DNA of 64,000 nt, taken from positions 57,164,001 through 57,228,000 of the forward strand of contig OZ024741.1 of assembly GCA_964016885.1 (NCBI GenBank), written 5' to 3'. Both the position numbers and the translations under genes were made by a program. This stretch comes from Eledone cirrhosa (lineage: Eukaryota). The notes under the pieces were generated by a model. It did no database searches, was not told where the DNA came from, and worked only from the letters and a program-made list of their open reading frames with translations. Positions 243-62,341 of the stretch are shown here, in pieces (positions within the stretch are counted from its first letter, which is position 1; each line of letters starts with the position of its first letter).

Positions 243-333
243 CGAAGGAAATGTGGTAAGGAACCAGGTGGACCATAACGCACCAAAGTACTCAATACTT
301 GAGGTAGTAGAGTGGGTAATAGGAACCAGTAAG

Positions 334-427
334 ACCCCGACAGCTGAGCTCAAGCCGTTTCGACGGCTAATTCTGGACTAAATGAAAATTTATCCTGGTA
401 TTTAAATAGCCGATCTTCTCAAGGGGT
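334..427 (-). ncRNA. Type I hammerhead ribozyme, U3-A8 core variant (mirror copy)
   Basis: Reverse complement of 4393-4486. Confidence 0.8.
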
Positions 428-2078
428 AATTCCATATATGGTCAAAGTGATTGTCAAAAATCAGTAGTAATTCTGTGCTTGCAAATTAGTAGGGGAGATG
501 GTGGCTAAACCTGCCAGTAGGAGAAAGAGGGGAGGGGGTGGAGTAGACCCAATCAAGCGTTGGTAGTGCCAGCTACAGCTGGGCATGAGGTCAAAGAAGA
601 TACAGGGGAGGGGAGGGGGAGTAATTCGGAACGGTAGGTAGAACAATGGGGGGTAGAAATAGGAAAGAAAAAATACTGAGAGTGAAGAAAAGCAAATAAG
701 TGTAAAGAAAAAAGTAAAGTAAATTAAATTCAACGACCTAGGTGTCAGGCTATTGTTAGGCGAGAATAAAATAAAGAAAGAAAGAAAGAAGTAAATAAAT
801 AAATAAATAAATAAATAAGGAAATAAGTAAGAGAACTAGGTGGGGCGGATAAGGCAAGGACCCTTTTAAGAGGTATAAGTACGTAAATGATACGGTGACG
901 GGTCAACAAAAGGGGCCAAAATACTAAAGAGACTACCACGAAATAAACAATAAAGGTTTCCATCCCGGGCCAGCAACGACCCAGTGCAGCAAAGTGAACT
1001 TGTACGAGATAATAATTCTGAGTCCCGAGAAAAATATATACTAATGCTAACTCTAAAAGATCTAAAACAAGCTACATGAAAGTTCGTACGAAATAAAGGT
1101 AGAATACGGAGAAATAAATTCAGAATCCACCCCGCCCAGAAGAAAAGCGAAGCAAGAAATACTGAAACGAAAAAATAAGGCATAAGTGCCACTAAGAAAT
1201 ATAGAGGGCACAGAGAATAGTGGGAGCGGTCGGAAAAAGGGGGAAAGTATCCGGGGTCTAAGCCAACTGCTATAAAGGGCGGAGACCGCCAAATCTATCA
1301 AAGACATGGGGAGGGGGGGGGGGGGTACTAAGGCTACATGGGGCCAAAGGGCAGCCTCGGGTGGGCGAGAAAAGACGCCGACAAAGGAGAAGAGCTGGGG
1401 TAGAAGGACAAAGGAGAGAGGGGGGAAGGAAATAAAGGAAGCGATAAAAGAATACAAAGAAGATCTTACGTCTTACTTGGCAAGCAGGGGTTACCCATTG
1501 CAAAATCGGCAACTGGGGTGTTATAGCCCTAGTCTACCCCCCCGGGTCATTATGGGGTTTGAGGGCGAGGTAAGTCCTACGCAATCTATGTTTACATGCA
1601 GTAACCAGTTCATCTTTCTTGTTTAGGAGTTGGTCCGTCGAAAACAGCATTTGTAAAGTTTCCTCCGAGCATAAATTGCACGGACGGCGTCCTCCCGTGT
1701 AAGAATTGGCTCTGGACAGTAATCTCCAAGTGAGATCATAGGTGATGTTGTTGTCCTTGAGGTCCCATATGTGGCCCGAAAGTGTAGTGGCGTGACGCCG
1801 GGCCGGGTTTCGGAAGGTATGTCTATGTTGGTATAGCCGGGTCTTGAAGTCACATGCGGTAAGTCCTATATAGGCTTTGTTGGAGGTATCCGTCCTCACG
1901 TTGCACTGGTAGATCACATTACGGTCTCTGCATCTATTGTCGAGTGGGCAAATAGATCTATCCGGGCAGTTACACCTCCTGGTCGGTTCTCCACTGCTAA
2001 TTAGGTTATTTCTGCCATCGGGGTTGAGTTTTTTGTTGTTAGAGGAGACGATGTTTTGTGCGAAGTTTGGTGTAGTGC

Positions 2079-3287
2079 ATGGGCGCCACGGATTCGGCGG
2101 AGGTCACTGATCTTATAGGATTATTCCTAATAGCCAAACTCACTGATATGTTTCCTGCATTCGGTGGTGGATTGTACCGTGATGATGGGCTCCTTACCCT
2201 TAAAGGGTACAACCCCAGTAGTACAGATCGGGTCCGGAAACAATTAATCAGATTCTTCCGCGACTGGGGATTTAAAATAACCCTACAAACGTCCCTGACC
2301 CGAGTAAACTTCCTGGACGTAACCCTCGACCTCGAAAACGACCTGTACTACCCATACAGGAAACCTAATGACAATCTGCACTACATCCACCGCCGATCAA
2401 ACCATCCTAGGAACATCACAAACAACCTGGTCAAAAACATCTCCCTCCGCATATCCCGTTTGTCAGCTAATGAGCGGATATTCGATGAACATGCGCCTTA
2501 TTACAATCAGGCCCTCAAGCGGAGTGGTTTCCGGGAGGAAATATCCTACTGTCCAGCTCCCATTAGCGGAACCAGCAGGAGACACTGCCGCTCACGCAAT
2601 GTAACATGGTTCAATCCTCCCCACAACGCAGAGGTGACTACTCCCATCGGGAAACTATTCTTTAGGCTCATTGAAAAACACTTCCCATTACAACACCGCT
2701 ACCACAACATAATTAACAAAAATACCATCAAACTCTCTTACAGCACTACACCAAACTTCGCACAAAACATCGTCTCCTCTAACAACAAAAAACTCAACCC
2801 CGATGGCAGAAATAACCTAATTAGCAGTGGAGAACCGACCAGGAGGTGTAACTGCCCGGATAGATCTATTTGCCCACTCGACAATAGATGCAGAGACCGT
2901 AATGTGATCTACCAGTGCAACGTGAGGACGGATACCTCCAACAAAGCCTATATAGGACTTACCGCATGTGACTTCAAGACCCGGCTATACCAACATAGAC
3001 ATACCTTCCGAAACCCGGCCCGGCGTCACGCCACTACACTTTCGGGCCACATATGGGACCTCAAGGACAACAACATCACCTATGATCTCACTTGGAGATT
3101 ACTGTCCAGAGCCAATTCTTACACGGGAGGACGCCGTCCGTGCAATTTATGCTCGGAGGAAACTTTACAAATGCTGTTTTCGACGGACCAACTCCTAAAC
3201 AAGAAAGATGAACTGGTTACTGCATGTAAACATAGATTGCGTAGGACTTACCTCGCCCTCAAACCCCATAATGACCCGGGGGGGTAG
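2079..3287 (+). CDS. PLE1 5'-truncated polyprotein: C-terminal half of RT, Cys linker, GIY-YIG endonuclease (probably Nematis-like clade)
   Basis: MGATDSAEVTDLIG (motif B'), YRDDGL, FLDVTL, PYRKP, CNC...CPL...C, VIY...YIG, RLYQH...H, CNLC..E, LN; clade assignment is recollection, not a tree. Confidence 0.9.
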   Translation: MGATDSAEVTDLIGLFLIAKLTDMFPAFGGGLYRDDGLLTLKGYNPSSTDRVRKQLIRFFRDWGFKITLQTSLTRVNFLDVTLDLENDLYYPYRKPNDNLHYIHRRSNHPRNITNNLVKNISLRISRLSANERIFDEHAPYYNQALKRSGFREEISYCPAPISGTSRRHCRSRNVTWFNPPHNAEVTTPIGKLFFRLIEKHFPLQHRYHNIINKNTIKLSYSTTPNFAQNIVSSNNKKLNPDGRNNLISSGEPTRRCNCPDRSICPLDNRCRDRNVIYQCNVRTDTSNKAYIGLTACDFKTRLYQHRHTFRNPARRHATTLSGHIWDLKDNNITYDLTWRLLSRANSYTGGRRPCNLCSEETLQMLFSTDQLLNKKDELVTACKHRLRRTYLALKPHNDPGG

Positions 3288-4392: not shown

Positions 4393-4486
4393 ACCCCTTG
4401 AGAAGATCGGCTATTTAAATACCAGGATAAATTTTCATTTAGTCCAGAATTAGCCGTCGAAACGGCTTGAGCTCAGCTGTCGGGGT
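4393..4486 (+). ncRNA. Type I hammerhead ribozyme, U3-A8 core variant
   Basis: ACCCC-TTGAGAA-GATCGGCTA..TAGCCGTC-GAAA-CGGCT[tgagctc]AGCTG-TC^GGGGT; all three stems pair; predicted cut after 4481. Confidence 0.8.
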
Positions 4487-4498
4487 CTTACTGGTTCC

Positions 4499-4513
4499 TA
4501 TATATATATATAT

Positions 4514-4595
<82 letters not shown>

Positions 4596-4626
4596 ATATA
4601 TATACACATATACATATATATATATA
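4499..4626. repeat. Compound (TA)n/(TG)n microsatellite; representative of many such tracts (e.g. 4827-4910, 11003-11069, 23095-23160, 27452-27536, 32542-32636, 33003-33085, 62070-62150)
   Basis: Direct inspection. Confidence 0.98.
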
Positions 4627-4824
4627 GGAAAATATTCAAGACCCCGACAGCAGAGCTCAAGCCGTTTCGACGGCTATTTCTGGACAGTCCAGAAACAGCC
4701 GTCGAAACGGCTTCAGCTCTGCCGTCGGGTTCTTGAATATTTTCCTATTACCCACTCTACTACCCCAAGTATTGAGTACTCTGGTGCGTTATGGTCCATC
4801 TGGTTCTTTACCACACTTCCTTCG

Positions 4825-4826
<2 letters not shown>
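4625..4826 (+). mobile_element. Non-coding mini-PLE hairpin of the PLE1 family (arms 4625-4685/4687-4747, tail 4748-4826)
   Basis: Near-perfect palindrome holding the 3' half of the PLE1 hammerhead; tail matches the reverse complement of 241-319; (TA)n on both sides. Confidence 0.88.
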
Positions 4827-4910
<84 letters not shown>

Positions 4911-5218: not shown

Positions 5219-5596
5219 ATATTGTTATACTTTGGGAGGGTCATGTTGCCAATAAGAAACACAAGCACCAGTTGCTTTCACTTCAATTTATTATAATAAA
5301 TTTATAAATTTGGGAATTTATAAATTTCCGGTTGGTTGGTTGGTTCCACAACCTGACGATTGTTCATATATTGTCAAAGTTCTTTCGTCACACATTCTGT
5401 GACCTCTTCAGTGACTGGGATTCTTTTCTTTGTTTTTGTGCCTCTCCTTTGTTCTGTCCTACGCCATCTTGTTTGTGACACACACGGAAATTTATAAATT
5501 CCTAAATTTATAAATTTATTATAATAAATTGAAGTGAAAGCAACTGGTGCGTGTGTTTCTTATTGGCAACATGACCCTCCCAAAGTATAACAATAT
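5219..5596. mobile_element. Mini-PLE palindrome (arms 5219-5330/5485-5596) with a hammerhead in the spacer
   Basis: 112-bp inverted repeat; spacer is the reverse complement of a sequence similar to 18810-18940; right end abuts (TA)n. Confidence 0.85.
5373..5415 (-). ncRNA. Minimal type I hammerhead motif
   Basis: GTCA-CTGAAGA-g GTCACA gaatg TGTGAC-GAAA-gaac-TT^TGAC. Confidence 0.7.
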
Positions 5597-5723
5597 ATAT
5601 ATATATATATATATAGTAATAATAATAAAATTGAAGACTAAAATCCAGAGAGGGCTCGATAAGGAAAATATATATCAAATATATAAGAACCGAAGAGCAA
5701 ATATTTATTAAATAACAGATTAA

Positions 5724-5774: not shown

Positions 5775-6974
5775 AACAAAGTCAATCTGTAAACGCAGAA
5801 CTGGATATTTCAAAAAACGTTGCAACCGGAGGAAGACAGGAAGACGATACTTTGGTTCATGGTGACGTTCGCTGGCAAAGAACGGGAAAAAACGAATAAT
5901 ACGTCATTAATAGAAGCGGTGAAAAACAATTACGTGCAAGGACAGAACCACGTTTATGGTATAAAAGAGGTCGTAGACTAATGTTCTCTAAGTGGTGCAT
6001 AGAGACGTTCTCTGGCAATGAACGAAAAAACGAAGATAATAAGTCATATGTGGAGCGTGGAGAACAATAGCGTGCAAAGACAAAACCACGTAAATGGTAT
6101 AGCAGAAGTCGTAGACTAAAATTCTAACTAGGAGACCGAATGAATCTCCGCTACAGAGTTAAGAACAAAGCAAATAAATACAATACAGAAGTAATAGGAA
6201 CAAATAAATACATACACGCAAACAGATACGTACATACACAAGCATACGCATAACCTTACCATAGGTATACAAAACCACGCACATATAAATATGTGTATGT
6301 GTGTATGCTTGTGTACAAATAAATAAATAATTATATAAACGTATATAAGTAAATAAATACGTATATAACAAGCGCACACACATACCTACAAATAAATACA
6401 TGAAGGTTCGGAGACGTAAATCAACTAAAACAAGAAGTACACATATACACACACCCACACACCCTGCATACTCACGCAGACGCAAAACTCCCATATACAC
6501 ATAACCAAGCCCTAAATACCAGAATATGTAAAAATTATACGCCAAAACAGTCAAATATACGTACGAGAAGGTATATATACCTTCACAAAACATACGGGTA
6601 ATATATACTTACCTATGCAAAAAGTAAAGGAATAAACAAAACATATACTTAGCTCCCACATCAAGACGTAAATATCCACGTATAGATCGTGCTATCCGTT
6701 AGGGTATAACGTAGGGCTGTAATACAGGAAAGGTTTGTGCAATTTATGTTTACAAGCCGAAATTGCCTGAGATTTTTTGTTTAAGATGTGGTCTGTGGCG
6801 TAGAGTATTTCCAGGGCCTCAGCGGCGCAGAGGTCACATGGTCTTTTATTTCCGTTATATGATCTAGCCCTAGCTAGGATCTCCCAGTGTAACTTATATT
6901 GGGTGTGGTTGTCTTTTAGACTCCAGATATAAGCTGAAAGTGACGTCATATTCCTTCTTAGAGGGTAACGATTC

Positions 6975-8213
6975 TTGATAGAATTATACCTGAAATCCAA
7001 TAGTACCCCATTCGACGTGAGTATGGGCGCCAGTGACTCTGCGGAGGTTACCGATCTTATTGGCCTTTTCCTTCTTTTCTCTATCAAGGACGAATTCCCC
7101 AACGCGGGCGGTGGTTTGTACCGTGACGATGGCCTTTTGACCATGACTAAGTGCGGACCTCGTGCTTGCGACAGATTCAGAAAAGAACTCACAGCCTTCT
7201 TTAAAGGCTTCAACCTCTCTATACAGGTTGAGGCCAATCTCTCGGTCGTTAATTACCTCGACGTTACCCTCAATTTATTGAATGGGTTGCATTACCCGTA
7301 TAGAAAGCCGAATGATACGCTTAATTACATAAGTAAGCATTCCAACCATCCTGCCAGCATAACCAAGAACCTGGTAAAAAACGTTTCGTTGAGGCTTTCC
7401 CGTCTTTCCACCAACGAGCGCATTTTCAACGACCATTCCACTTATTACAATGAAGCTCTTGCTCGAAGTGGATTTGTCGATAAGGTAGCATATACAGAGT
7501 ACGAGAATAGACCTAGAAGAAATAGATCCCGTCGCATTTGTTGGTTTAACCCACCATATAATATGGAGGTGGCCACACCTTTAGCTAAGATCTTTCTTTC
7601 CCTTATTACGAAGCATTTTCCCCCTACACATAAATATAGTAAAATTTTTAATAGAAACACTATTAAAATTTCTTACTCAACGACTCCTAACCTTGCACAT
7701 AACATCACAGCTTCAAATTTAGCTATAATACCTAGCCGTAGGAACACGTGCAACCCTGTAGTTAGTACTAACTGTAATTGTAGGAATCGGGCTGATTGTC
7801 CCCTATCCGGGAAATGCCTCTCTAGTAACATTGTCTACAAATGTAAGGTTGTAACACCCACGTCCCGTAGGGCCTACAAAGGGTTAACCGCCAATAGTTT
7901 CAAGCAGCGTCTTTACATGCATACCCATTCTTTTCGTTACCCTCTAAGAAGGAATATGACGTCACTTTCAGCTTATATCTGGAGTCTAAAAGACAACCAC
8001 ACCCAATATAAGATACACTGGGAGATCCTAGCTAGGGCTAGATCGTATAACGGAAATAAAAGACCATGTGACCTCTGCGCCGCTGAGGCCCTGGAAATAC
8101 TCTACGCCACAGACCACATCTTAAACAAAAAATCTGAGGCAATTTCGGCTTGTAAACATAAATTGCACAAAACTTTCCTGTATTGCAGCCCTACGTTATA
8201 CCCTAACGGATAG
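6975..8213 (+). CDS. PLE2 5'-truncated polyprotein: RT C-half + GIY-YIG endonuclease
   Basis: FDVSMGASDSAEVTDLIG, YRDDGL, YLDVTL, CNCRNRADCPLSGKC, IVY...YKG, CDLC..E; homologous to the PLE1 ORF. Confidence 0.9.
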   Translation: MIELYLKSNSTPFDVSMGASDSAEVTDLIGLFLLFSIKDEFPNAGGGLYRDDGLLTMTKCGPRACDRFRKELTAFFKGFNLSIQVEANLSVVNYLDVTLNLLNGLHYPYRKPNDTLNYISKHSNHPASITKNLVKNVSLRLSRLSTNERIFNDHSTYYNEALARSGFVDKVAYTEYENRPRRNRSRRICWFNPPYNMEVATPLAKIFLSLITKHFPPTHKYSKIFNRNTIKISYSTTPNLAHNITASNLAIIPSRRNTCNPVVSTNCNCRNRADCPLSGKCLSSNIVYKCKVVTPTSRRAYKGLTANSFKQRLYMHTHSFRYPLRRNMTSLSAYIWSLKDNHTQYKIHWEILARARSYNGNKRPCDLCAAEALEILYATDHILNKKSEAISACKHKLHKTFLYCSPTLYPNG

Positions 8214-10526: not shown

Positions 10527-10557
<31 letters not shown>

Positions 10558-10564
<7 letters not shown>

Positions 10565-11000
10565 AAATAAATAAGTCAAATATTTAAAATTTGGCTTCGT
10601 TTATTAAAGGTGTACTGCTATATATATTTCGGTGACAGCCATCTTTGGCTGTGACCTCTTCGGGCAGTCCGAATTGGTGTGGTAGAGACGGGTACACATG
10701 TTGTTGAGGTGTTTAATTCCGTCAATACTCCGATATGTCCAGTTCCTGGTTGGGTTGTTATTTCTCTGAGGAACTAGAATCTCTACCACACCAATTTGGA
10801 CTGCCTGAAGAGGTCACAGCCGAAGATGGCTGTCACCGAAATATATATAGCAGTACACCCTTAATAAACGAAGCCAAATTTTAAATATTTGACTTATTTA
10901 TTTTATTTTACATTACTCCGGAGTAACCGAACCAACCTGCGCACTTCGTCGAGTGCTCCAATCTGCATATTGAGGTGTCGGTAAACAACCAACATATACT

Positions 11001-11003
<3 letters not shown>
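10558..11003 (+). mobile_element. Mini-PLE palindrome (arms 10558-10688/10780-10910, tail 10911-11003)
   Basis: 131-bp inverted repeat, a hammerhead in each arm, (TA)n on both sides. Confidence 0.9.
10800..10854 (+). ncRNA. Minimal type I hammerhead ribozyme (mirror copy 10614-10668(-) has CCGAAGA)
   Basis: ACTGC-CTGAAGA-GGTCACAGCC gaagat GGCTGTCACC-GAAA-tatata-TA^GCAGT. Confidence 0.88.
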
Positions 11004-11067
<64 letters not shown>

Positions 11068-11070
<3 letters not shown>

Positions 11071-20662: not shown

Positions 20663-21511
20663 TGAAGTAATTCCGTCGGAAAGGTCCAGGAAAAAAGAGT
20701 GCTCTATGTGAATTACAGAGCTTATTAGTTATGTAATAAACAACATAAGATAATTATTTCATTTACCAGTGGTTTCTTGAAAGCAACCAAAATTGCTTTC
20801 ATTCATCAGAATGAAAAAAATCCAGGTGTCTTTATTGACAGTGGATTTGAAAAACAAAAATGTAACAGATATGAAAGTGAGGCTGGAGGAAAAAAAAAGG
20901 GGGGGGGGGGGGGAATAATAAATAAGAATATATAACAACACACACGTACACACTCACGCACACACACTCACATATATACATATATGGTGGCTGCCAACTC
21001 GTTTTCGAGTACGGCCACTACTTTATATCCATGTAGGAGAACCCCTACTAATGCGCTGAACGAGTGTGACTTTTTAGTCCAGCCAGCAACTTGAAAACTC
21101 TGGTACAAACACTACACTTGTGACAATTATTGACACATAGTGCTGGGCCCATGGTACCATGTGACGACAAGTGAAGGGAGATCTCCAGATATAAAGCAAT
21201 GCCTGTGCCGTGAAGCTTTTATAGTGAGCAAAGGCACTGCACAAAGCCAGTCCCACTCTCTTAACCAAGATGATATTTACCAAAAAGAAGAACAAGTCAA
21301 CATTATTTGATACCATCAGGGTTGCAGGTGTTATATCAGAGTTTTCCTTCTCCTAGGATTCTGCCTTGACAAAGGCTAAGGGGTCATCTCTCCAGGTGAT
21401 TTTGTATGGCCATTGACTCTTAAGAGCTCCTTTGCCCTTTGACAGGTTTTGTTTTTAGTCCTGCAGGATGTCCAAAGTCACCCTCCTCACCAAGAAACCT
21501 TGGTGGAGTTG

Positions 21512-21935: not shown

Positions 21936-22096
21936 ATATCTAAGAGGTGAGTTTTATTGTAGTACAATAAAACAATGCAGATATCGGATAAGAAGCACTC
22001 TACAGTTTGTAGGACTGGAGTATAAATAATATATAAGATGTTGATTTAAAACTGCACTATTCACAAGTGTGTTTTAACCTTCATATCATGTCTCCC

Positions 22097-22995: not shown

Positions 22996-23091
22996 TTATA
23001 TTGTATTGTTTATAATACATTAAATTTTGCTCTGGTACTTACATAGAGCACTCTTCACTCCTATGACATTTTCAATTTTCAACGGAAACTT

Positions 23092-23164: not shown

Positions 23165-23628
23165 GGTAAACATTGATGCAATTCAATTCAAGCACTCAAC
23201 GTACTTTTTCCACATAGGAGTGACGGAGTAAATATCGAATAAGGAAAAACGAAGTAGTTTCAGATGTTCAAGTCCTTTAATAATAATGTTGTGATATATA
23301 TTTCAGTGACGACACTGGCCACACTGTTCTGTGTGCGAGTGTCGTGTCATCATCAGACAGCTTGTTACATAATAAGGTTATGTTTCCGAGGCAATCCAAA
23401 TTGGATCGACAAGGGAACGGATGAAAAACCCAAGAACACGCAATTCATCCGTTCCCTTGTCGATCCAATTTGGATTGCCTCGGAAACATAACCTTATTAT
23501 GTAACAAGCTGTCTGATGATGACACGACACTCGCACACAGAACAGTGTGGCCAGTGTCGTCACTGAAATATATATCACAACATTATTATTAAAGGACTTG
23601 AACATCTGAAACTACTTCGCTTTTCCTT

Positions 23629-24704: not shown

Positions 24705-26050
24705 ACTAAAGCAAATACGTGTTTGAAACGAAAGAATGGTATTTAACTAATGTGTACGAGATGGGGCCCATCCACAGCCCCAGCGGACAGAATGGAGAAG
24801 GCGTTTCCATGAAGGACGGCACGGGAGACGCGCTGGAAAAGCCACTCGCGGGGCTCACACCTACGGCTGGCCAGCTCAGCGCCTATGGTGGTGAGTAAGG
24901 AGGTAGCCCTGGGGCCGAGGACACTAGAAGTTTCCACTGCCAGGGGAACGACCGCAAACCTGTCGGAGAGCCACCGGTATTTGAGGAGTTTGGCCCCCTC
25001 AGCCCGACGTGCAGCAGAACCTGGGTCAGTCGCAGGTTGCGGCTGTAGAAAGTGTCGGTGCAAGTGGCATCCCAGACGAGGGGTTTTCCACCGCGGAACG
25101 GGAAGATGGTCATGCCATCTGGCCTTTTGCCGTCCCCTCGATCCAGCCCCACCGGCTCGAGCTGGGAAGGGAAGCCTGCAGCGTCCAAGCCATGCTTAAT
25201 GACCTCGTTGAGGGCAGTATGGTGTGGAATGCGACCGGCACTGTGACGACAGGAAAGCGGGTCGAAGCCGAAAGAGTCCACGGTGGAACCGCAGCGACAT
25301 TGGTGTGGCTGGCAGATCCGGAGGCCGAGCGTCAGGGAAACGCCGATTCGCAGGCTATGGTTGTCTAGCTGCGTGCCAGTGGGGAAGGAGGGCAGAGCAT
25401 GGAGTCAGGCACCACTGTGGGGTTTGGAGGCCGCACGAAAACAGACAAGGCGGTGCTGGTCGAGCTGGCGCGTGAGCCTGTCTGAGGCCAGGCTGCACTG
25501 GGTGGCATCCCAAATGCGTTGGGGTGACTTGACGTCAACAGGGGAAGAAGGAGGAGGGACGTCTACTGGGCTAAGTCCCAGCCGGTCCCACGTCTCACAG
25601 GCGGCCTCACGTTCTCTGAACACAGAGGATTCTGTTGTGTGTTGAATAACCCTGCTGACGAGGACGCGGCACGAGGTTACCGACGAAAGATACGCCGGCA
25701 AAGCTAGTGAGATCGGGGACCGGAGACCTAGGCCGCCATACCTGACCGGTAAAATGGCCTGTTGCCACCCTATGTCATCAAACTTGACGTTGCATATCCC
25801 CTCGGCTGCTGCTCGGATACAAGTATCGAGGTCAGCGAGGAGAGATGTCTGGGTGTAGCATGGAGCGTTGCGGAGTGTATAGAGGAGCTTCGGCATGGCG
25901 AAGCAGTTCCTCAGCAGAAAGAGAGCTGGGTGGCCGTTAATCAAGCCCAGTCGGCTCGTGAGAGTCTGGAGCTGTTGAAGCCCGGACCTCATGGTGGAGC
26001 GGATGGCCGGCGGGTGGATCAGTGATCCGAGGATGAGGACATCCTCAAGG
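24705..26050 (-). mobile_element. CRE-clade non-LTR retrotransposon 3' part (RT thumb, Zn knuckle, restriction-like endonuclease); pseudogenised
   Basis: LPVRYGGLG, SGA*(W)L, CRCG..D..G..LSC, H..LN, EP, RPDG, WDAT, KY..L....PLAVET; one stop and one frameshift; 3' end abuts (TA)n. Confidence 0.85.
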
Positions 26051-26144
26051 GGGCGGGGGGGGGGGGGGGCCCCATATACACATATATATATAAAAGAAAT
26101 ACATAAAAGTTTATTTTCAATTTTATGCATATATATATATATAT

Positions 26145-26806
26145 GGCATTGGTAAAATATAACGTCCGGGAAAGTGAAACTAATTTTTATGACAAGTGAA
26201 TGTGTTTGTTTTGTTTTTTTTACACTGAAAATTACGATACAGTTTGTTTATTTACAACAGGTCTCTATAGTGATATGGTGTTAATTAGTATTGCGTGTGT
26301 GATTATTTTCTCTTATATATATATATGTGTGGGTGTGTATATGTGTGTATATATATGTGTGTCTGTATGTATATATATATGTGTGTTTGTATATATATAT
26401 GTGTTTGTGTCATCATCATCGTTTAGATGTTTTTACCCAAATCCCTTATCATTCTCTGTCCTTTTTATGACCCCGCCTTAATCTGTTTATAGTTGGTGCC
26501 AACTTTGGCAAGATATTACAAAAACATCTAAACGATGATGATGACACAAACACATATATATACAAACACACATATATATATATACATACAGACACACATA
26601 TATATACACACATATACACACCCACACATATATATATATAAGAGAAAATAATCACACACACAATACTAATTAACACCATATCACTATAGAGATCTGTTGT
26701 AAATAAACAAACTGTATCGTAATTTTCAGTGTAAAAAAAAAAAAAACACATTCACTTGTCATTAAAATTAGTTTCACTTTCCCGGACGTTATATTTTACC
26801 AATGCC
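26145..26806. repeat. Fold-back element, arms 26145-26434/26520-26806, in (TA)n
   Basis: ~290-bp inverted repeat with few mismatches; no ORF or ribozyme core recognised. Confidence 0.85.
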
Positions 26807-26838
<32 letters not shown>

Positions 26839-27167
26839 TATATACATATATAAATGAAAAGTATAGAGATTATTGTAGCAAGAAGCCAACAGTATTCCAT
26901 AATATATAAGTGACTATAGCGTCAAAATGGAAAAATAGTTAACGTAAGATGTGGGAAAATAATTCAAACTCAATACATATACACATATATATACATACAT
27001 ACACAAAATAAAAATAAAGGGAAAGAAGTGGTATCCAAATAGTAGGGCATACGACAAATAAAAAATAAAGGTATAAATGTTTATAGCTGATTAAGAGCAC
27101 TCAACACTTTGGTTGCTTTCAAGAAACTACTGGTAAATGAAATAATTATCTTATGTTGTTTATTACA

Positions 27168-27540: not shown

Positions 27541-27658
27541 TACTAGGGAGAGGATCAGGGGTGTATAACACTCCACTTATCCAGCAGGCAGTATAAGGTT
27601 AGCTCGATGTCTGAGGACAGAGCCGTGATATAATAAATAACAAAGAACGCCTATAGCA

Positions 27659-29866: not shown

Positions 29867-32355
29867 CTAGCTAATAGGTTTAAAGTAGAAGAAAGAGCTT
29901 AATATTCGGTGGGGGCAAGAGGAAAATATTTCTGACTTTCTATTTAGTAGAGGGCATTTAGCAAATATAATAGAGTGGGATTCGGCAAGGCATAGGTTAC
30001 ATACTCTATTATGAGGAGTATATGGATGGGATTTAGCAACCTGCCGCCAAGTAAGTGTGTAATGTGTTCGTGCATTTTTTAAATTGTGGACGTACGCTGC
30101 CAATGAGGTGGAGTTCCTCAGTTTATTATGTCTAAAAGTGCATTGGTGAGAGTTAAACCTGGTCTTAAAGGGGGTGGAGGTTGATCCTATATAGGTTTTA
30201 GTGGACGCCGTAGTTACCACATCACACGCATAAACTATGTTTCTAACAAGGCAGAAACCATTCAGGGGGCAGCCTGAAGCCCTTCTACAGTTACAACTTC
30301 TGGTGATGCTATTCTCAGAATGATCACCACTTGTGTTTCGGCCCACTCTGTCCACTACCGTGTTTTCCCCTAGGCTTAGGTTGTCTAGGCCTTCCTTTAT
30401 TTTCTTATTATTAGTAATGGCCAGATGAGAGGCCAGATTTTGGGTTGTAGAATACGAAAGTTTAACAACATTCTTATTGAGGATAGAGTGGTACCTATTA
30501 CCAGGAGGGAAGTTCCTTTCTAACACAGAGAAGAAGGCCCTAGGAATATTTATAGCCACTTCAGAATTAAAAGGGGGGTTGAAGTATGTATTCAATCTTC
30601 TTCTATTCTTTTTATTCTTTCTATTTCCATCACTATTATTAGCATTATTATTTCTACGGTTACTATGCTCACCTAGTCTATGCGGGGAGCTGCGAGGCCT
30701 ACCATTGCTATTACTTAGACTAATGGTGCCCTGCTGGTTCATTCCACCGGCATTTAGAAACCTCCCATTCGCGACACCTCTATTGCTATTACTTAGACTA
30801 ATGGTGCCCTGCTGCTTCGTTCCACCGGCATTTAGAACCCTCCCATTCGCGACACCTCCATTACCAATGGACATATTATGTGTTATAACAACACTGGTAG
30901 AGCTACTATTAGGACTATTATTTCCCTGGGTGTAATACAATTTGTCCCTAAAGCCGGATCTAGCTAAGGCATCATTATAGTAATCAGCCTGCGAGTCAAA
31001 CGCCTCCTCACTATGTGAGAGTGAACTTATTCTGTTAGATACGCCCTTCAGTATACCGCTGATGACCGACCTAGGGTGGTTAGAGTTGGTATTCACGTAA
31101 GTCAGCAATTCATTAGGCTTATGGTACGGTGTGTACGTATGGTTATCCAAGTCTAATGTAACATCCAGGAAGTTCACAGTTCTATCATTTATATCCATAG
31201 TAATGGATAGGTTAAAGGTTTTAAAAAAACTATGCAGCTTTTTCCTAATGCGCACTATATTATACTTACTAGTATCTATGGAGAGTAGGGCGTCATCCCG
31301 GTACAACCCGCCCCTAAGGAAAGGGAAGTTACTATGCAGTTCATTGAGGAGGTATAGCCCAACTAAGTCGGTGATCTGAGCAGAGTCACTCGACCCCATA
31401 GTAATGTCAAAATTATCAGGTGTGTTTTTTCTCGTCCATAGATTATCCTCAAACATGATAATGGTTTTACGTGCAGCGAGAACAATATCTATCTGTGGCC
31501 TTGTAATTGCCCCCCTCTGCATGGCTAGGATGAGGGCCTTATTGAGGATAATAGGAGATATAGATTATAATAAGCATCAATATCAAATTGGATGAATTTG
31601 AGTGAGTCACGACCACAATCCGTAGAGAACCACCTAATGACTTCACTAGTGTTACCCCAAAGCTCAAGGAAAGTTTTTTCTCTAACCAGGGGAATAACGC
31701 TATCCAAGATTCCCTTACTAATAATCCCCAGGTCAGACTTGGAGGGGCAGATAAGCCTAACTGAGGGTCTGCTAATAAAATCTTCCTTGTGGTCCTTGAG
31801 GGTGAATCTAGGCTGCTTGGGGTAATAAGGCTGAGTGTGTTTATCCAGACCTAGTTTTACCACTATGTTATACCCCTCCAGATTAATATTATCTAAATTA
31901 CTCTGCGTTGTTTTTTTGTAGTTCCTATGTAGTTCATTATAAATGAAGCCTCGATAGGTTTTATAATCCATACTATATAAGTTTTTAGTTTTGTCAGAGG
32001 GGACCAGAATGGATTTATTATCCCTAAAGTCTCTAACGATTGAACTTAGTTTACTCTGAAATTTATTGGTACATCTAGATTTTTTATATCTAATATTCCT
32101 AACAAGGGATAATAGCTCACTTTCGAAGTTATCCAACAGGCTATAATGCGGGGGGCTCCTATAAGTCTTAAATCCATAATTATTAAAACTACGCCTCTCT
32201 TCAGGGCTATCATACTTCTTATCAAAATGGAACGCACGCCACCGAACACGTTTTACGAATGAGTTTATGCTAGTTATCAGTGATTTCTCATATGAGATTT
32301 TAGGGTGGGTGGGAATATTCTTCAAAGAAATGGGTAAGTATGTCTTTGTTAGCAT
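29867..32355 (-). pseudogene. PLE3 polyprotein (~830 codons; RT + GIY-YIG) broken by a single 1-nt frameshift near 31566
   Basis: SLKNIP, SDKT, KDHK..F...P..RLI.P, FDIDAYY|(S)ISP, MGSSDSA, YRDDAL, FLDVTL, CNC..CPL.G.C, IVY..YIG, CNLC. Confidence 0.9.
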
Positions 32356-32539
32356 ACTGCCTGATAATATACAAGGACACAAATCCACGTATATCAAAGT
32401 TTAAGTTCAACCAGTGGGAGCCGTATAGTATACTAGGGAGAGGATCAGGGGTGTATAACACTCCACTTATCCAGCAGGCAGTATAAGGTTAGCTCGATGT
32501 CTGAGGACAGAGCCGTGATATAATAAATAACAAAGAACG

Positions 32540-32636: not shown

Positions 32637-32998
32637 GCAGAGGTTATATTTAATTTAAAAATTTTTATAACTGATATAAAGCACTCAACAAATTAGTGGA
32701 GTAGTGGAGTAAATATACAATATATTAATAAATGGAAACTATATTTATAAAACCATATTTATTTTATTATACATATTTCAAGAGCAACCAAGGCAAATTA
32801 TGGTGCGCTTTCATCAGATAAAATACAGATTTGTTTTATAAATAAATATTGACATACCCGGAAAAAAAGACAGCCTTAACGGGTATGTCAATATTTATTT
32901 ATAAAACAAATCTGTATTTTATCTGATGAAAGCGCACCATAATTTGCCTTGGTTGCCCTTGAAATATGTATAATAAAATAGTTTCCATTTATTAATAT

Positions 32999-59043: not shown

Positions 59044-61551
59044 GTCATTACAATGGAATGTGATGAGATGACACATAATCAAAATTCTAAAAAGCTCCAT
59101 CTTTATCAACGTGCAGGGTCAAATTGTAACAAAGTAGTAGTAGTAGGAGAGTAGCGGCGAAAATGAAACCTTGATCGTTTTTTGAGGAAAACCAGATTGC
59201 TGAAACCTCTTACCCTCCTACGACCTGCTACTCATGCTATTTTTAGGCCATAAAAACTTTTGTATATTTTTTTATCATTGTATTGAGCAACTTTCTTTTC
59301 CATGTTATAAAATAAAATTACAGAAAGACTCAGATTTTTTTTTCTCCACTGAAACTTATATTTATATCAAAATACTCAGATATATTCATAGGATAATAAA
59401 GAATTAAATATTTAGACAAATATACAGAAAAAGAAGCAGGATTGGAAAAGGACTAAATGCCATAAATGAGATGGAAAAGGGGGGGGGGGTACTATTAAGC
59501 AGCAGAAGAAGGGAAGGGAAAAAGGTAACAGACTCTACACCTAGGTCAGAGCAGTGTTTTGGCTGCGTCCCTCCTCCCGTGGACAATGACCAACAACAAC
59601 CACCCCACTCCCTCCAGTATTCCCACGCTCTCTGTTTTTGTGGGAGGAACCTGCTGTGTTCAGACCTAAAGAAGACTGGACTCTGCACGGTTTAAACGCC
59701 AAAGACACTGTTACTACGGTTTTTTATCATTCAAATGCTCAGCATTTGATTTAAAGTAGGAAACAAGGGAAATAATTCCATATATAATATATGTTATTTA
59801 CCCTTCCTTATACAAGACACGTTCTCGACTTCGTTACAACTAGCATCTGGAGAATTTTCTTTTTTACTCTTCGTTGAATAATACCTTATTATAGGAATAA
59901 ATAATTATATTTCTTATGAGAACTCAAAACTAAATATTCAGTTTGGCACTCAGTGACACGTAACATTTTTTAATGGGTAGTTGGGACTCGATTTAGAGAT
60001 AATTGTTTCTACTTTTGGCACAAGGCCAGCAATTATCCCAGTGTATTACTGGTACTTTATTTTATCGACCCCGTAAGGATGAAAGGCAAAGTTAACCTCG
60101 GCGGGATTTGAACTCAGAATGGCAAGGGCCGTAACTCTATGCGTCAAAGCATGGCGTCCGACCCTCTACCAATACTGCCAATCCAGTACCCATTTAGTGA
60201 TAATAATGGGTTGATAACATTGCCTGTAATTATAATAGTTTCTGATTTAGGCACAAAGCCAACAATTTGGGGGGAGGGAGACGTCGATTAAATCGACCCC
60301 AGTGTGTTAGTGGTGCTTTATTTTATCGACCCTGTAAGGATGAAAGGCAAAGCTAACCTCAACGGGATTTGAACGCAGAACGTAAAGGGATGTATGTACC
60401 ACAAAGCATGTTATCTGGCGCGCTACCGATACTGCCAATCCACCACCAATTCTAGTCAGCAACAATCCAAAAGTTGTTTTTTATTCCATTTCCCCATCTC
60501 CTGTCAAAGTCAGGAATAGTGTGTTACTCCGTCGGTTAAGCATCAGAAGAAAAAAAATGTGGATGGCAGGAGTGGTAGAGCGTTGGACAATATACTTCGC
60601 AGCATAGAGTTACGTCCCTTTACGTTCCGAGTTCAAATCCCACCGAGGTTAACTTTGCCTTTCATCCTTACGGGGTCGATAAAATAAAGTACCAGTAATA
60701 CACTGGGTATTTTGCTGGCTTTGTGCCAAAAGTAGAAACACTTATTTGGTTACTGCACTATATATTGCCGAAATGTTTAAGTTCACCTCATAATGAGGAA
60801 GTCCCAGGTGAGCAAGTAAGTATGGTAACCATAGCCATAGGTCGATATAAGGCAGGTGAGATCTGTCTTTTAATTGCTAGAAATAGCAGCCAATTGCAGA
60901 AGGCCAATGTGTATGTGTGTGTGTTCTGGACTTACACAATTCTATCTTTAGCAATTAAAAGGCATTTTCATTTTGTGATTATCACACATACATATATATA
61001 TACACACATACACACACAAACACACATATATATATATACACACACACAAACACAGTGAAAGAGTAGACGCACGCGCGCGCAAACATACGCGACACTTATC
61101 TATTTATTCATTGCTATCTACCACACATATATAAATATCATCATCATCGTTTAACGTCCATTTTCCACGCTAGCATGTGTATACATACATGCACACACAC
61201 ACATTTTTATGTAAATGTGTGTGTAATATTATCATCATATGCAAACAATATGCAATAAAACTTTTCCAGATTTCAAAAATGTTATGCAAAAGAAAAACAT
61301 AAGAATTGTTTTCAAGGGAAACTACAAGGTTTTATTTCACATTTACCTGATTGTCTCCCTTAGAGTGTGTATGTATACTCATGCTATGTATCTTGGATTT
61401 ATATATACGTGGATTATAAATATACATTTGGCTGCTATTTCTAGCAATTAATCACTATATAAATGCTCCAATTACATACATACATACATATATATAAGCT
61501 CTGTAGCCTACATAGAGCACTTTTTTTCCTGTACCTTTCCTACGGAAATAC

Positions 61552-61804: not shown

Positions 61805-62067
61805 GATAGGTTAAGCCTTTATTACGCTTATAGGTTGGTGACGCGCGTTTCGCTATTGATCAGCTCAAGGTTCGATCTGGACTAATTCTGGAATCAAAAG
61901 GTCGTCGGACGAGCTTTAGATTCCAGAGTCAGGCCAGATCGAACCTTGAGCTGATCAATAGTGAAACGTGCGTCACCAACCAATAAACGTAATGAAGGCT
62001 TAACCAATCATCCTTGTATCGAGTGCTCACCTGGGTGAACCTACAGTAACTTCGCGTTACACTCTCT

Positions 62068-62152: not shown

Positions 62153-62341
62153 AAAAGAGTCAGAAACCCGACGGCTGAACTCCGGCCATTTCGACAGCTA
62201 GATCAGTTCGGATCTAGCTGTCGAACGGCCGGATTCAGCCGTCGGGTTTCTGACTCTTTTCCTATTATCCACTCTACTACCCTAAGTATCGACTACTCTG
62301 GTACGTTATGGTCCACCTGGTATTTTACCACACCTTCTTTG

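Follow-up and report, generated by a model that had tools for sequence, protein, structure and literature searches.

The window, that is, the whole stretch of 64,000 nucleotides analysed here, is an AT-rich part of the 3.0-Gb genome of Eledone cirrhosa. The feature under study is a 450-nt fold-back at 10555-11002, which consists of two arms and has a (TA)n tract on either side (Table 1). By sequence comparison, this element is the 5'-truncated fold-back end of a coding family of Hydra-type Penelope-like retrotransposons (Penelope-like elements, PLEs): two coding relatives, at loci L258 and L259, show 83-87% identity to it and match the Hydra profile over positions 2-686, with broken frames. 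Since coding copies of the family exist (L258 and L259), the possibility that the element is a non-coding mini-element was rejected.

Three Hydra-type frames (PLE1, PLE2 and PLE3) also lie in the window. Pfam assigned no family to 12 frames of the window and gave a weak RT match in one of three homologues, and a search of viral contigs found no relative. Hydra ends are nested in the (TA)n tracts of earlier Hydra insertions, forming stacked arrays (4442-4900; L045, L049 and L050; many loci). Three other fold-backs, at 5219-5596, 22244 and 33208, are those of a non-Hydra PLE with a Neptune- or Nematis-type linker and a tail of 45-61 nt; the protein at 5219-5596 has DKS, YVDD and a Cx4CxxC linker, and its ORF contains N/T-rich low-complexity inserts. 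In addition, broken frames at 24743-26247 on the minus strand, which have no Pfam match, look by eye like the reverse transcriptase (RT) and restriction-like endonuclease of a further non-LTR element.

Table 1. Coordinates of the features discussed in the text (positions in the window)
Feature	Position	Strand	Remark
(TA)n target tract, left of fold-back	10527..10559	.	
Inverted 5'-truncated arm	10555..10688	-	ends at short site (~6 nt before hairpin 1)
Sense arm of fold-back, end of the element's 3' region	10780..10913	+	83-87% identical to L258, L259
Minimal hammerhead core and stem II	10805..10841	+	predicted fold, without Rfam match
One-sided tail, ~95 nt	10909..11002	+	short site to long site
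(TA)n target tract, right of fold-back	11003..11069	.	
Hairpin 1 of the 10555-11002 element	10915..10957	+	ACTC 10915-18, inner stem-loop 10919-48, bulge 10949-50, GAGT 10951-54, GCT 10955-57
PLE1 frame, Hydra-type RT + GIY-YIG	2076..3287	+	5'-truncated
PLE2 frame, Hydra-type	6969..8213	+	5'-truncated
PLE3 frame, Hydra-type	29867..32400	-	two pieces
PLE1 hairpin 1	287..313	-	
Hairpin 1, nested PLE1-like fold-back	4754..4780	+	
PLE2 hairpin 1	5651..5698	-	GCTC/GAGC, inner stem weak in this copy
GCTC/GAGC-ACT hairpin	20698..20721	-	absent from first-pass annotation
Hairpin 1	21994..22021	-	ACTC/GAGT form
GCTC/GAGC-ACT hairpin	23029..23052	+	absent from first-pass annotation
Hairpin 1	23191..23229	-	ACTC/GAGT form, 7 nt past short site
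3' strand alone	27096..27102	-	5' half replaced by another family's sequence
PLE3 3' tail, hairpin 1	27599..27623	-	GCTC/GAGC
PLE3 5' leader, hairpin 2	32405..32421	-	one base differs; intact in other genomic copies
PLE3 5' leader, hairpin 1	32489..32513	-	
Hairpin 1	32680..32710	-	ACTC/GAGT form, 5' strand duplicated
GCTC/GAGC-ACT hairpin	61498..61521	+	absent from first-pass annotation
3' strand alone	62021..62027	+	whole hairpin in relatives (L035, left flank)
PLE1-type hairpin 1	62271..62297	+	damaged

Among PLEs, the Hydra clade is marked by RWR/RWK, DKT, CxCX5C, CxxC and CxH (Craig et al. 2021, PMC8557442), and these motifs are present in the three window frames. In particular, the N-terminal motif is RWK in L259, which belongs to the family of the 10555-11002 element, and RWR in PLE1 and PLE3; DKT replaces DKG in L259, the PLE1 array and PLE3; and a CxCX5C linker lies ahead of the C-terminal GIY-YIG domain in L259, PLE1, PLE2 and PLE3. 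CCHH is absent, and CxxC and CxH flank a conserved E and N (by alignment for PLE1-3 and by motif scan for the PLE1 array). The elements insert into (TA)n, and a hammerhead core with stems I and II is predicted at 10805, near the 3' end of the element, with scores below the Rfam thresholds. Judged by these marks, the elements belong to a known clade, the Hydra-type PLEs with a C-terminal endonuclease. In a tree that comprised only proteins from this genome and from metagenomes, a branch with a support of 100 separates the six families of this genome from 23 metagenome rows.

Compared with the clade as described in PMC8557442, the RWK/RWR, DKT, CxxC and CxH motifs and the CxCX5C linker are common to both, as are the (TA)n targets, the hammerhead near the 3' end and copies that are inverted and truncated and bear a tail on one side only. 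The published tails are 30-40 nt long, whereas those here are about 55-100 nt, and the published units are "generally under 3 kb", whereas the PLE1 unit here is 3.54 kb. Unlike the elements of PMC8557442, those of this genome mostly have a hairpin 1 (see below) of the form ACTC/GAGT. The hairpin is visible in the consensus sequences of that paper from a coral, a sea cucumber (twice in Hydra-1_Ajap) and a copepod (degenerate); the accessible part of its text does not mention it.

As for ribozymes, Rfam 15 at the gathering score gave 0 matches in the window. Hammerhead cores with unusually long stem II regions lie at 23356 (-), 23513 (+), 27309 and 32817. By eye, PLE1 has a hammerhead-like fold at about 4394-4488 (+) and 332-426 (-), in which the first core strand is atypical and stem III is long.

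The first-pass annotation of this DNA had drawn attention to the motif GAGTRCT in the tails of these elements. All of its eight positions match, namely 287-, 4774+, 10951+, 21994-, 23191-, 27096-, 32680- and 62021+, where the signs denote strands. A TACTCC upstream of the motif in four families (10951, 21994, 23191 and 32680) is likewise present, at a measured distance of 16-37 nt, and the TCGAGC variants in the PLE2 and PLE3 tails were found on the minus strand at 5654-5659 and 27602-27607, 1-3 nt away from the positions originally given. The families had been called otherwise unrelated; their tail sequences are indeed unalike, but the families are related through their proteins. The ACTC/GAGT stem that had been proposed is real, although it also occurs as GCTC/GAGC and continues, across a bulge of 2 nt, into an inner stem, and the copies at 27096 and 62021 lack its 5' strand. 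Two things had been overlooked: the form GCTC/GAGC-ACT, which is dominant outside this genome, and a second hairpin immediately beyond the long end.

In the window, GAGTRCT has 23 matches, against 11.0 +/- 3.5 expected from 100 shuffles. Eight of them are those listed above, one is the opposite strand of the palindromic match at 4774, two (20697 and 23047) are hairpins read on the wrong strand, five belong to another repeat and seven are others. That other repeat is dispersed (21814, 22724, 41268, 50899 and 62687), has GAGTGCT in the same surroundings each time and bears no relation to the tails. Genome-wide, GAGTRCT lies 28-58 nt before (TA)8 in 47,315 cases, compared with 3,289 for the reversed pattern, when each motif is counted once (237,672 versus 19,689 when repeated starts are counted). 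By a one-strand count, the motif is present in at least 47,000 tails of this genome. In a set independent of the motif definition, 200 kb of flanking DNA, a (TA)n tract occurs 20-85 nt downstream of 12 of 28 hairpins versus 3.7% of random positions, and on the 5' side of 2 of the 28. Finally, tails were defined by structure alone in 444 kb, which yielded 34 (7 from the window). A strict hairpin is present in 17/34 of these, compared with 30/6,800 shuffles, 2/34 antisense sequences and 27/527 stretches beside any TA tract. By eye, the 17 tails without it consist of 7 with a damaged or variant hairpin, 3 of the non-Hydra family and 7 that are neither.

A bulged hairpin, which can be written as RCTC-(stem-loop)-2-nt bulge-GAGY-RCT, has GAGTRCT as its 3' strand. 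The bulge is TT, TC or TA, the loop ranges from 6 to more than 30 nt, and the first inner pair (inner pair 1) alternates between C-G and U-A with both sides changed. Although conserved, the trailing RCT has no pairing partner in the model; in all hairpins, GAGY and the trailing RCTC make up a near-palindrome, GAGYRCTC. A variant hairpin with a 1-nt bulge was observed in the 66-nt tail of another family (L271:5885 and L271:9324).

Several known identities were considered for this motif and rejected. A hammerhead stem III needs an A-U closing pair directly after GAA and then a cleavage base other than G, whereas the pair is G-C in 79/89 rows; moreover, at 10951 a G follows GAGT (position 10955) and there is no adjacent GAA core. 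The downstream promoter element RGACGTGY of Penelope and LINEs (PMC2377424) is mismatched by direct comparison, and the consensus of the polymerase III B box gave no match by eye.

Pairing was counted in two ways. With anchors placed by sequence only, inner pair 1 forms in 41/45 cases at a bulge of 2 nt (C-G 29, U-A 11 and U-G 1) and in 1, 4, 10 and 15 of the 45 at bulges of 0, 1, 3 and 4 nt, respectively; inner pair 2 forms in 35/45 at the 2-nt bulge. In the model-fitted alignment (91 distinct rows; 62 sources searched), the six pairs comprise one with G-C 79 and A-U 7, three that are invariant, one with C-G 32 and U-A 29, and one with A-U 24, G-C 17 and U-A 8. Note that the model-fitted counts lean towards structure because short hairpins had their 5' strand placed wrongly in the MAFFT alignment (A3); the count with sequence-only anchors is the fairer test of pairing. 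On a quick tree of 29 proteins, the rows of which were selected for possession of one inner pair, inner pair 1 changes 8 times, with 8 changes on each side. The A-U/G-C base pair changes only twice on the tree, and its A-U form is restricted to the families of this genome. Only 4 independent pairs lie on well-supported branches, and all of them agree (p 0.125), a number with which significance is out of reach. Together, the two-sided changes indicate that the structure is kept.

The hairpin at 10915-10957 is not the minimum-energy fold of its copy (z -0.69), and the base stem of hairpin 1 has a predicted probability of 0.00-0.28 in 6/8 families. With a base stem this improbable, a protein would have to stabilise the hairpin. 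An asymmetry of G-U versus A-C that favours the sense strand is weak (10 versus 1; 9 versus 4 in a second count).

In Hydra-type leaders, the bulged hairpin is present twice between the hammerhead and the ATG. The second copy, hairpin 2, was predicted beforehand from the published consensus files to lie just past the long end, and was then found in PLE3, PLE1 and the 10555-11002 family; in tandem copies of the last, it starts 6 nt past the 11003 junction. The order in the leader is hammerhead, 48-63 nt, hairpin 1, hairpin 2, 5-42 nt, ATG. The spacing between the two hairpins is 55-83 nt in metagenome leaders and 78-99 nt in this genome, and the sequences between them are unalike across 8 families of this genome. 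Metagenome leaders were collected by using one window protein as a query (967 relatives) and then a 53-protein alignment (77 metagenome loci); a leader of at least 150 nt was available for 38 of the 77 loci, and 33 remained after removal of near-copies. Exact GAGYRCT occurs twice in 18 of these 33 leaders, once in 10 and not at all in 5. As controls, 6/251 ORF windows and 83/3300 shuffles contain one such motif, and none contains two. Matches to the two-motif pattern in this genome number 1,871, compared with 423 for the reversed pattern. Of 13 two-hairpin families of this genome, 8 have a Hydra ORF start 17-34 codons further on, including the 10555-11002 family, and the remaining 5 gave no Hydra ORF start match. 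In the PLE1 array (L268/L269), the open frame takes in both hairpins: it starts 5' of hairpin 1, 67 codons ahead of the first ATG. Given the enrichments in flanking DNA, metagenome leaders and structure-defined tails, chance and a repeat-count artefact were rejected as explanations of the motif.

The motif seems to be limited to the Hydra type. The non-Hydra family at 5219-5596, whose tail lies inside the ORF, has no hairpin, and six 9-mers searched against consensus files gave three internal hits (Naiad and Chlamys) and four in Hydra ends or leaders, where line breaks in the files may hide more. A motif of all PLEs was rejected, since the Neptune/Nematis-type family is without it and the Naiad and Chlamys hits are internal only. 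Within the Hydra type, Hydra-1_Obim has no clear hairpin by eye.

The positions of the two hairpins correspond to the ends of the inserted copies. Among 98 (TA)n junctions from 8 families, 91 fall 2-12 nt before one of the two hairpins, with a mode of 6, compared with only 43/220 reference TA sites at -12 to -2; 60 loci of this set were fetched with queries that favour long ends, which leaves short ends unaffected. Junction and TA target have 1-8 nt in common in 84/98 cases. Of the metagenome loci with at least 40 nt of foreign flank, 10/14 stop within 4 nt of a hairpin start, and the other four comprise an end at the hammerhead, one 32 nt past a single hairpin, one without a strict hairpin and one tandem run-on. 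Similarly, the hairpin begins 5-9 nt after the arm end in 13/17 of the structure-defined tails that have one. The two arms of a fold-back end at different sites: 28 fold-backs that were not selected by their ends comprise 24 long+short, 2 long+long, 0 short+short and 2 others. For 24/26 long+short, p is 5e-6, as independent choice would give about half; among fold-backs selected for a long end, 15/19 are long+short. Since the ends adjoin the hairpins and the arms pair a short with a long end, the one-sided tail is the stretch between two hairpin-marked sites.

A related arrangement has been described for a Poseidon PLE, PAc of Anolis, the tail ends of which are, in vitro, two internal RT starts (Frangieh et al. 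2024, PMC11167929). The reaction requires the RNA 3' of these starts and the initial 172 nt of the ORF; cutting and extension take place on both strands, and a dimer is predicted (PMC11167929). The Hydra elements would be alike in having two internal starts that bound the tail downstream of the hammerhead, in a requirement for RNA 3' of the starts and in the use of both target strands. They differ in that the PAc starts lie inside the ORF, at an AC-rich stem-loop for which the accessible part of PMC11167929 defines no conserved motif, and in that PAc priming is reported to be non-homologous, whereas Hydra junctions here share a few TA bases with the target. On the assumption, carried over from PAc, that ends represent starts, the distance from hairpin to cDNA start appears to be fixed.

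By the same analogy, the hairpins are probably RNA binding sites that position the Hydra RT at two start points. The first-pass annotation had suggested a shared cis-element of this kind, an RT-binding or priming-positioning hairpin, and the suggestion gains support from the positional enrichment, the two-sided base changes and the mapping of ends; it had named a lack of enrichment over shuffled tails and a lack of covariation as evidence to the contrary, and both enrichment and two-sided changes were found. The process may be pictured as follows. The Hydra protein would cut (TA)n on both strands, and each cut 3' end would pair by a few bases with a UA-rich patch just 5' of a hairpin, where each hairpin would hold one protein subunit. 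One strand would be primed at hairpin 1, giving the short arm, and the other at hairpin 2, giving the long arm, which would copy hairpin 1 and therefore carry the tail; the two cDNAs would then join head to head. Since inserted 3' ends never include hairpin 2, the RT would have to copy a tandem read-through or a ribozyme-cut circle, or else cross an RNA by template jumping. In fact, a head-to-tail array at L268/L269 (G000:C1:91472001-91492000) contains four full PLE1 units with a period of 3,542-3,543 nt and open frames of 784-786 codons each; the last unit stops 6 nt before hairpin 2. The array shows that tandem templates exist. The complete scheme, in which the template is tandem or circular and a dimer of the Hydra protein uses two tandem hairpins, one for each strand, to prime the two strands of a single (TA)n break, is tentative, and we would give it somewhat less than an even chance.

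Other readings of the same data have to be weighed. The endonuclease might read the motif in single-stranded or extruded DNA and trim a longer cDNA or a tandem intermediate at a distance of a few bases from each hairpin, in which case the ends would be cut sites. PMC8557442 attributes the tail to resolution of an intermediate by the endonuclease, and PMC11167929 cites a Drosophila tail as required for endonuclease recognition of plasmid DNA. The end positions are compatible with trimming as well as with priming, and the near-palindrome would also suit a nuclease site. We nevertheless regard trimming as unlikely, because the Poseidon tail ends are RT starts in vitro (PMC11167929), because the 1-8 nt shared with the TA target at 84/98 junctions are expected from priming by short pairing, and because a loop that varies from 6 to more than 30 nt is awkward for a double-stranded site.

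The remaining readings give the motif a function apart from the start position. A leader promoter or translation-control element, with ends nearby by virtue of AT-rich priming patches, would leave the combination of long and short arms unexplained; other TA patches are unused, the two-sided changes of the inner stem fit a single-stranded structure, and the Drosophila 34-bp repeat is dispensable for normal initiation (PMC2377424). We consider it quite improbable, even though the first ATG follows hairpin 2 by 5-42 nt in 23 leaders and the Drosophila repeat scores as a promoter, its region controlling expression in the ovary (PMC2377424). The hairpins could also be packaging or recruitment signals only, or partners of the hammerhead, that do not set the start directly. 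This would agree with the fairly fixed position of hairpin 1, 48-63 nt after the hammerhead GAAA (16 leaders), with the protein requirement of the Poseidon ribozyme (PMC11167929) and with the use of ACTC/GAGT as stem III in several Hydra hammerheads (File S2). It is, however, very improbable in our judgement: a hammerhead stem III is incompatible with GCTC/GAGC and with a G or A that comes next and has no core, and the ends follow each hairpin despite a spacing that ranges from 55 to 99 nt.

Cis-acting stem-loops that recruit an RT are found in hepatitis B virus (epsilon, which is bulged), at the 3' ends of LINEs and SINEs, and in telomerase RNA. The Hydra hairpins would be like these in being a small structured RNA thought to bind its own RT and fix the start of copying. 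They differ in that there are two in tandem and in that cut genomic DNA would serve as the primer; furthermore, since the Hydra start lies 5' of the hairpin, a hairpin is not copied from its own site, unlike epsilon-type stem-loops. Type I minimal hammerheads in PLE ends are shared with non-LTR retrozymes and minimal PLE hammerheads (PMC4209133; bioRxiv 10.64898/2026.07.22.740005). By contrast, the 10555-11002 element represents the truncated end of a coding family rather than a tandem non-coding repeat, and the Hydra hairpin is separate from the ribozyme. A search of the open full-text literature, as distinct from subscription papers and Repbase or Dfam notes, found no description of the hairpin. 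The twin hairpin appears to be a new form of a known kind of signal, in elements that themselves belong to a known clade.

The origin of the one-sided tail and inverted ends of PLEs is named as a next task in PMC8557442, and the accessible part of PMC11167929 locates two starts and gives no signal for them. The start of copying is likely indicated to the enzyme by the hairpin pair, and this would account for a tail on one side only. Because the motif is conserved across proteins that are about 50% identical and has a fixed offset to both ends, it poses a direct question for mutagenesis, and the offset can guide the annotation of Hydra boundaries. Telomerase has its closest relatives in the reverse transcriptases of PLEs, and the way in which the start is fixed on PLE RNA therefore bears on the origin of template definition. 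If the reading with a dimer and two hairpins is true, a single two-site signal would explain the tail as well as the inverted arms, joined head to head, and the tandem units of PLEs. In that case, no template-positioning RNA element would have been defined before the hairpin pair in the sister group of telomerase.
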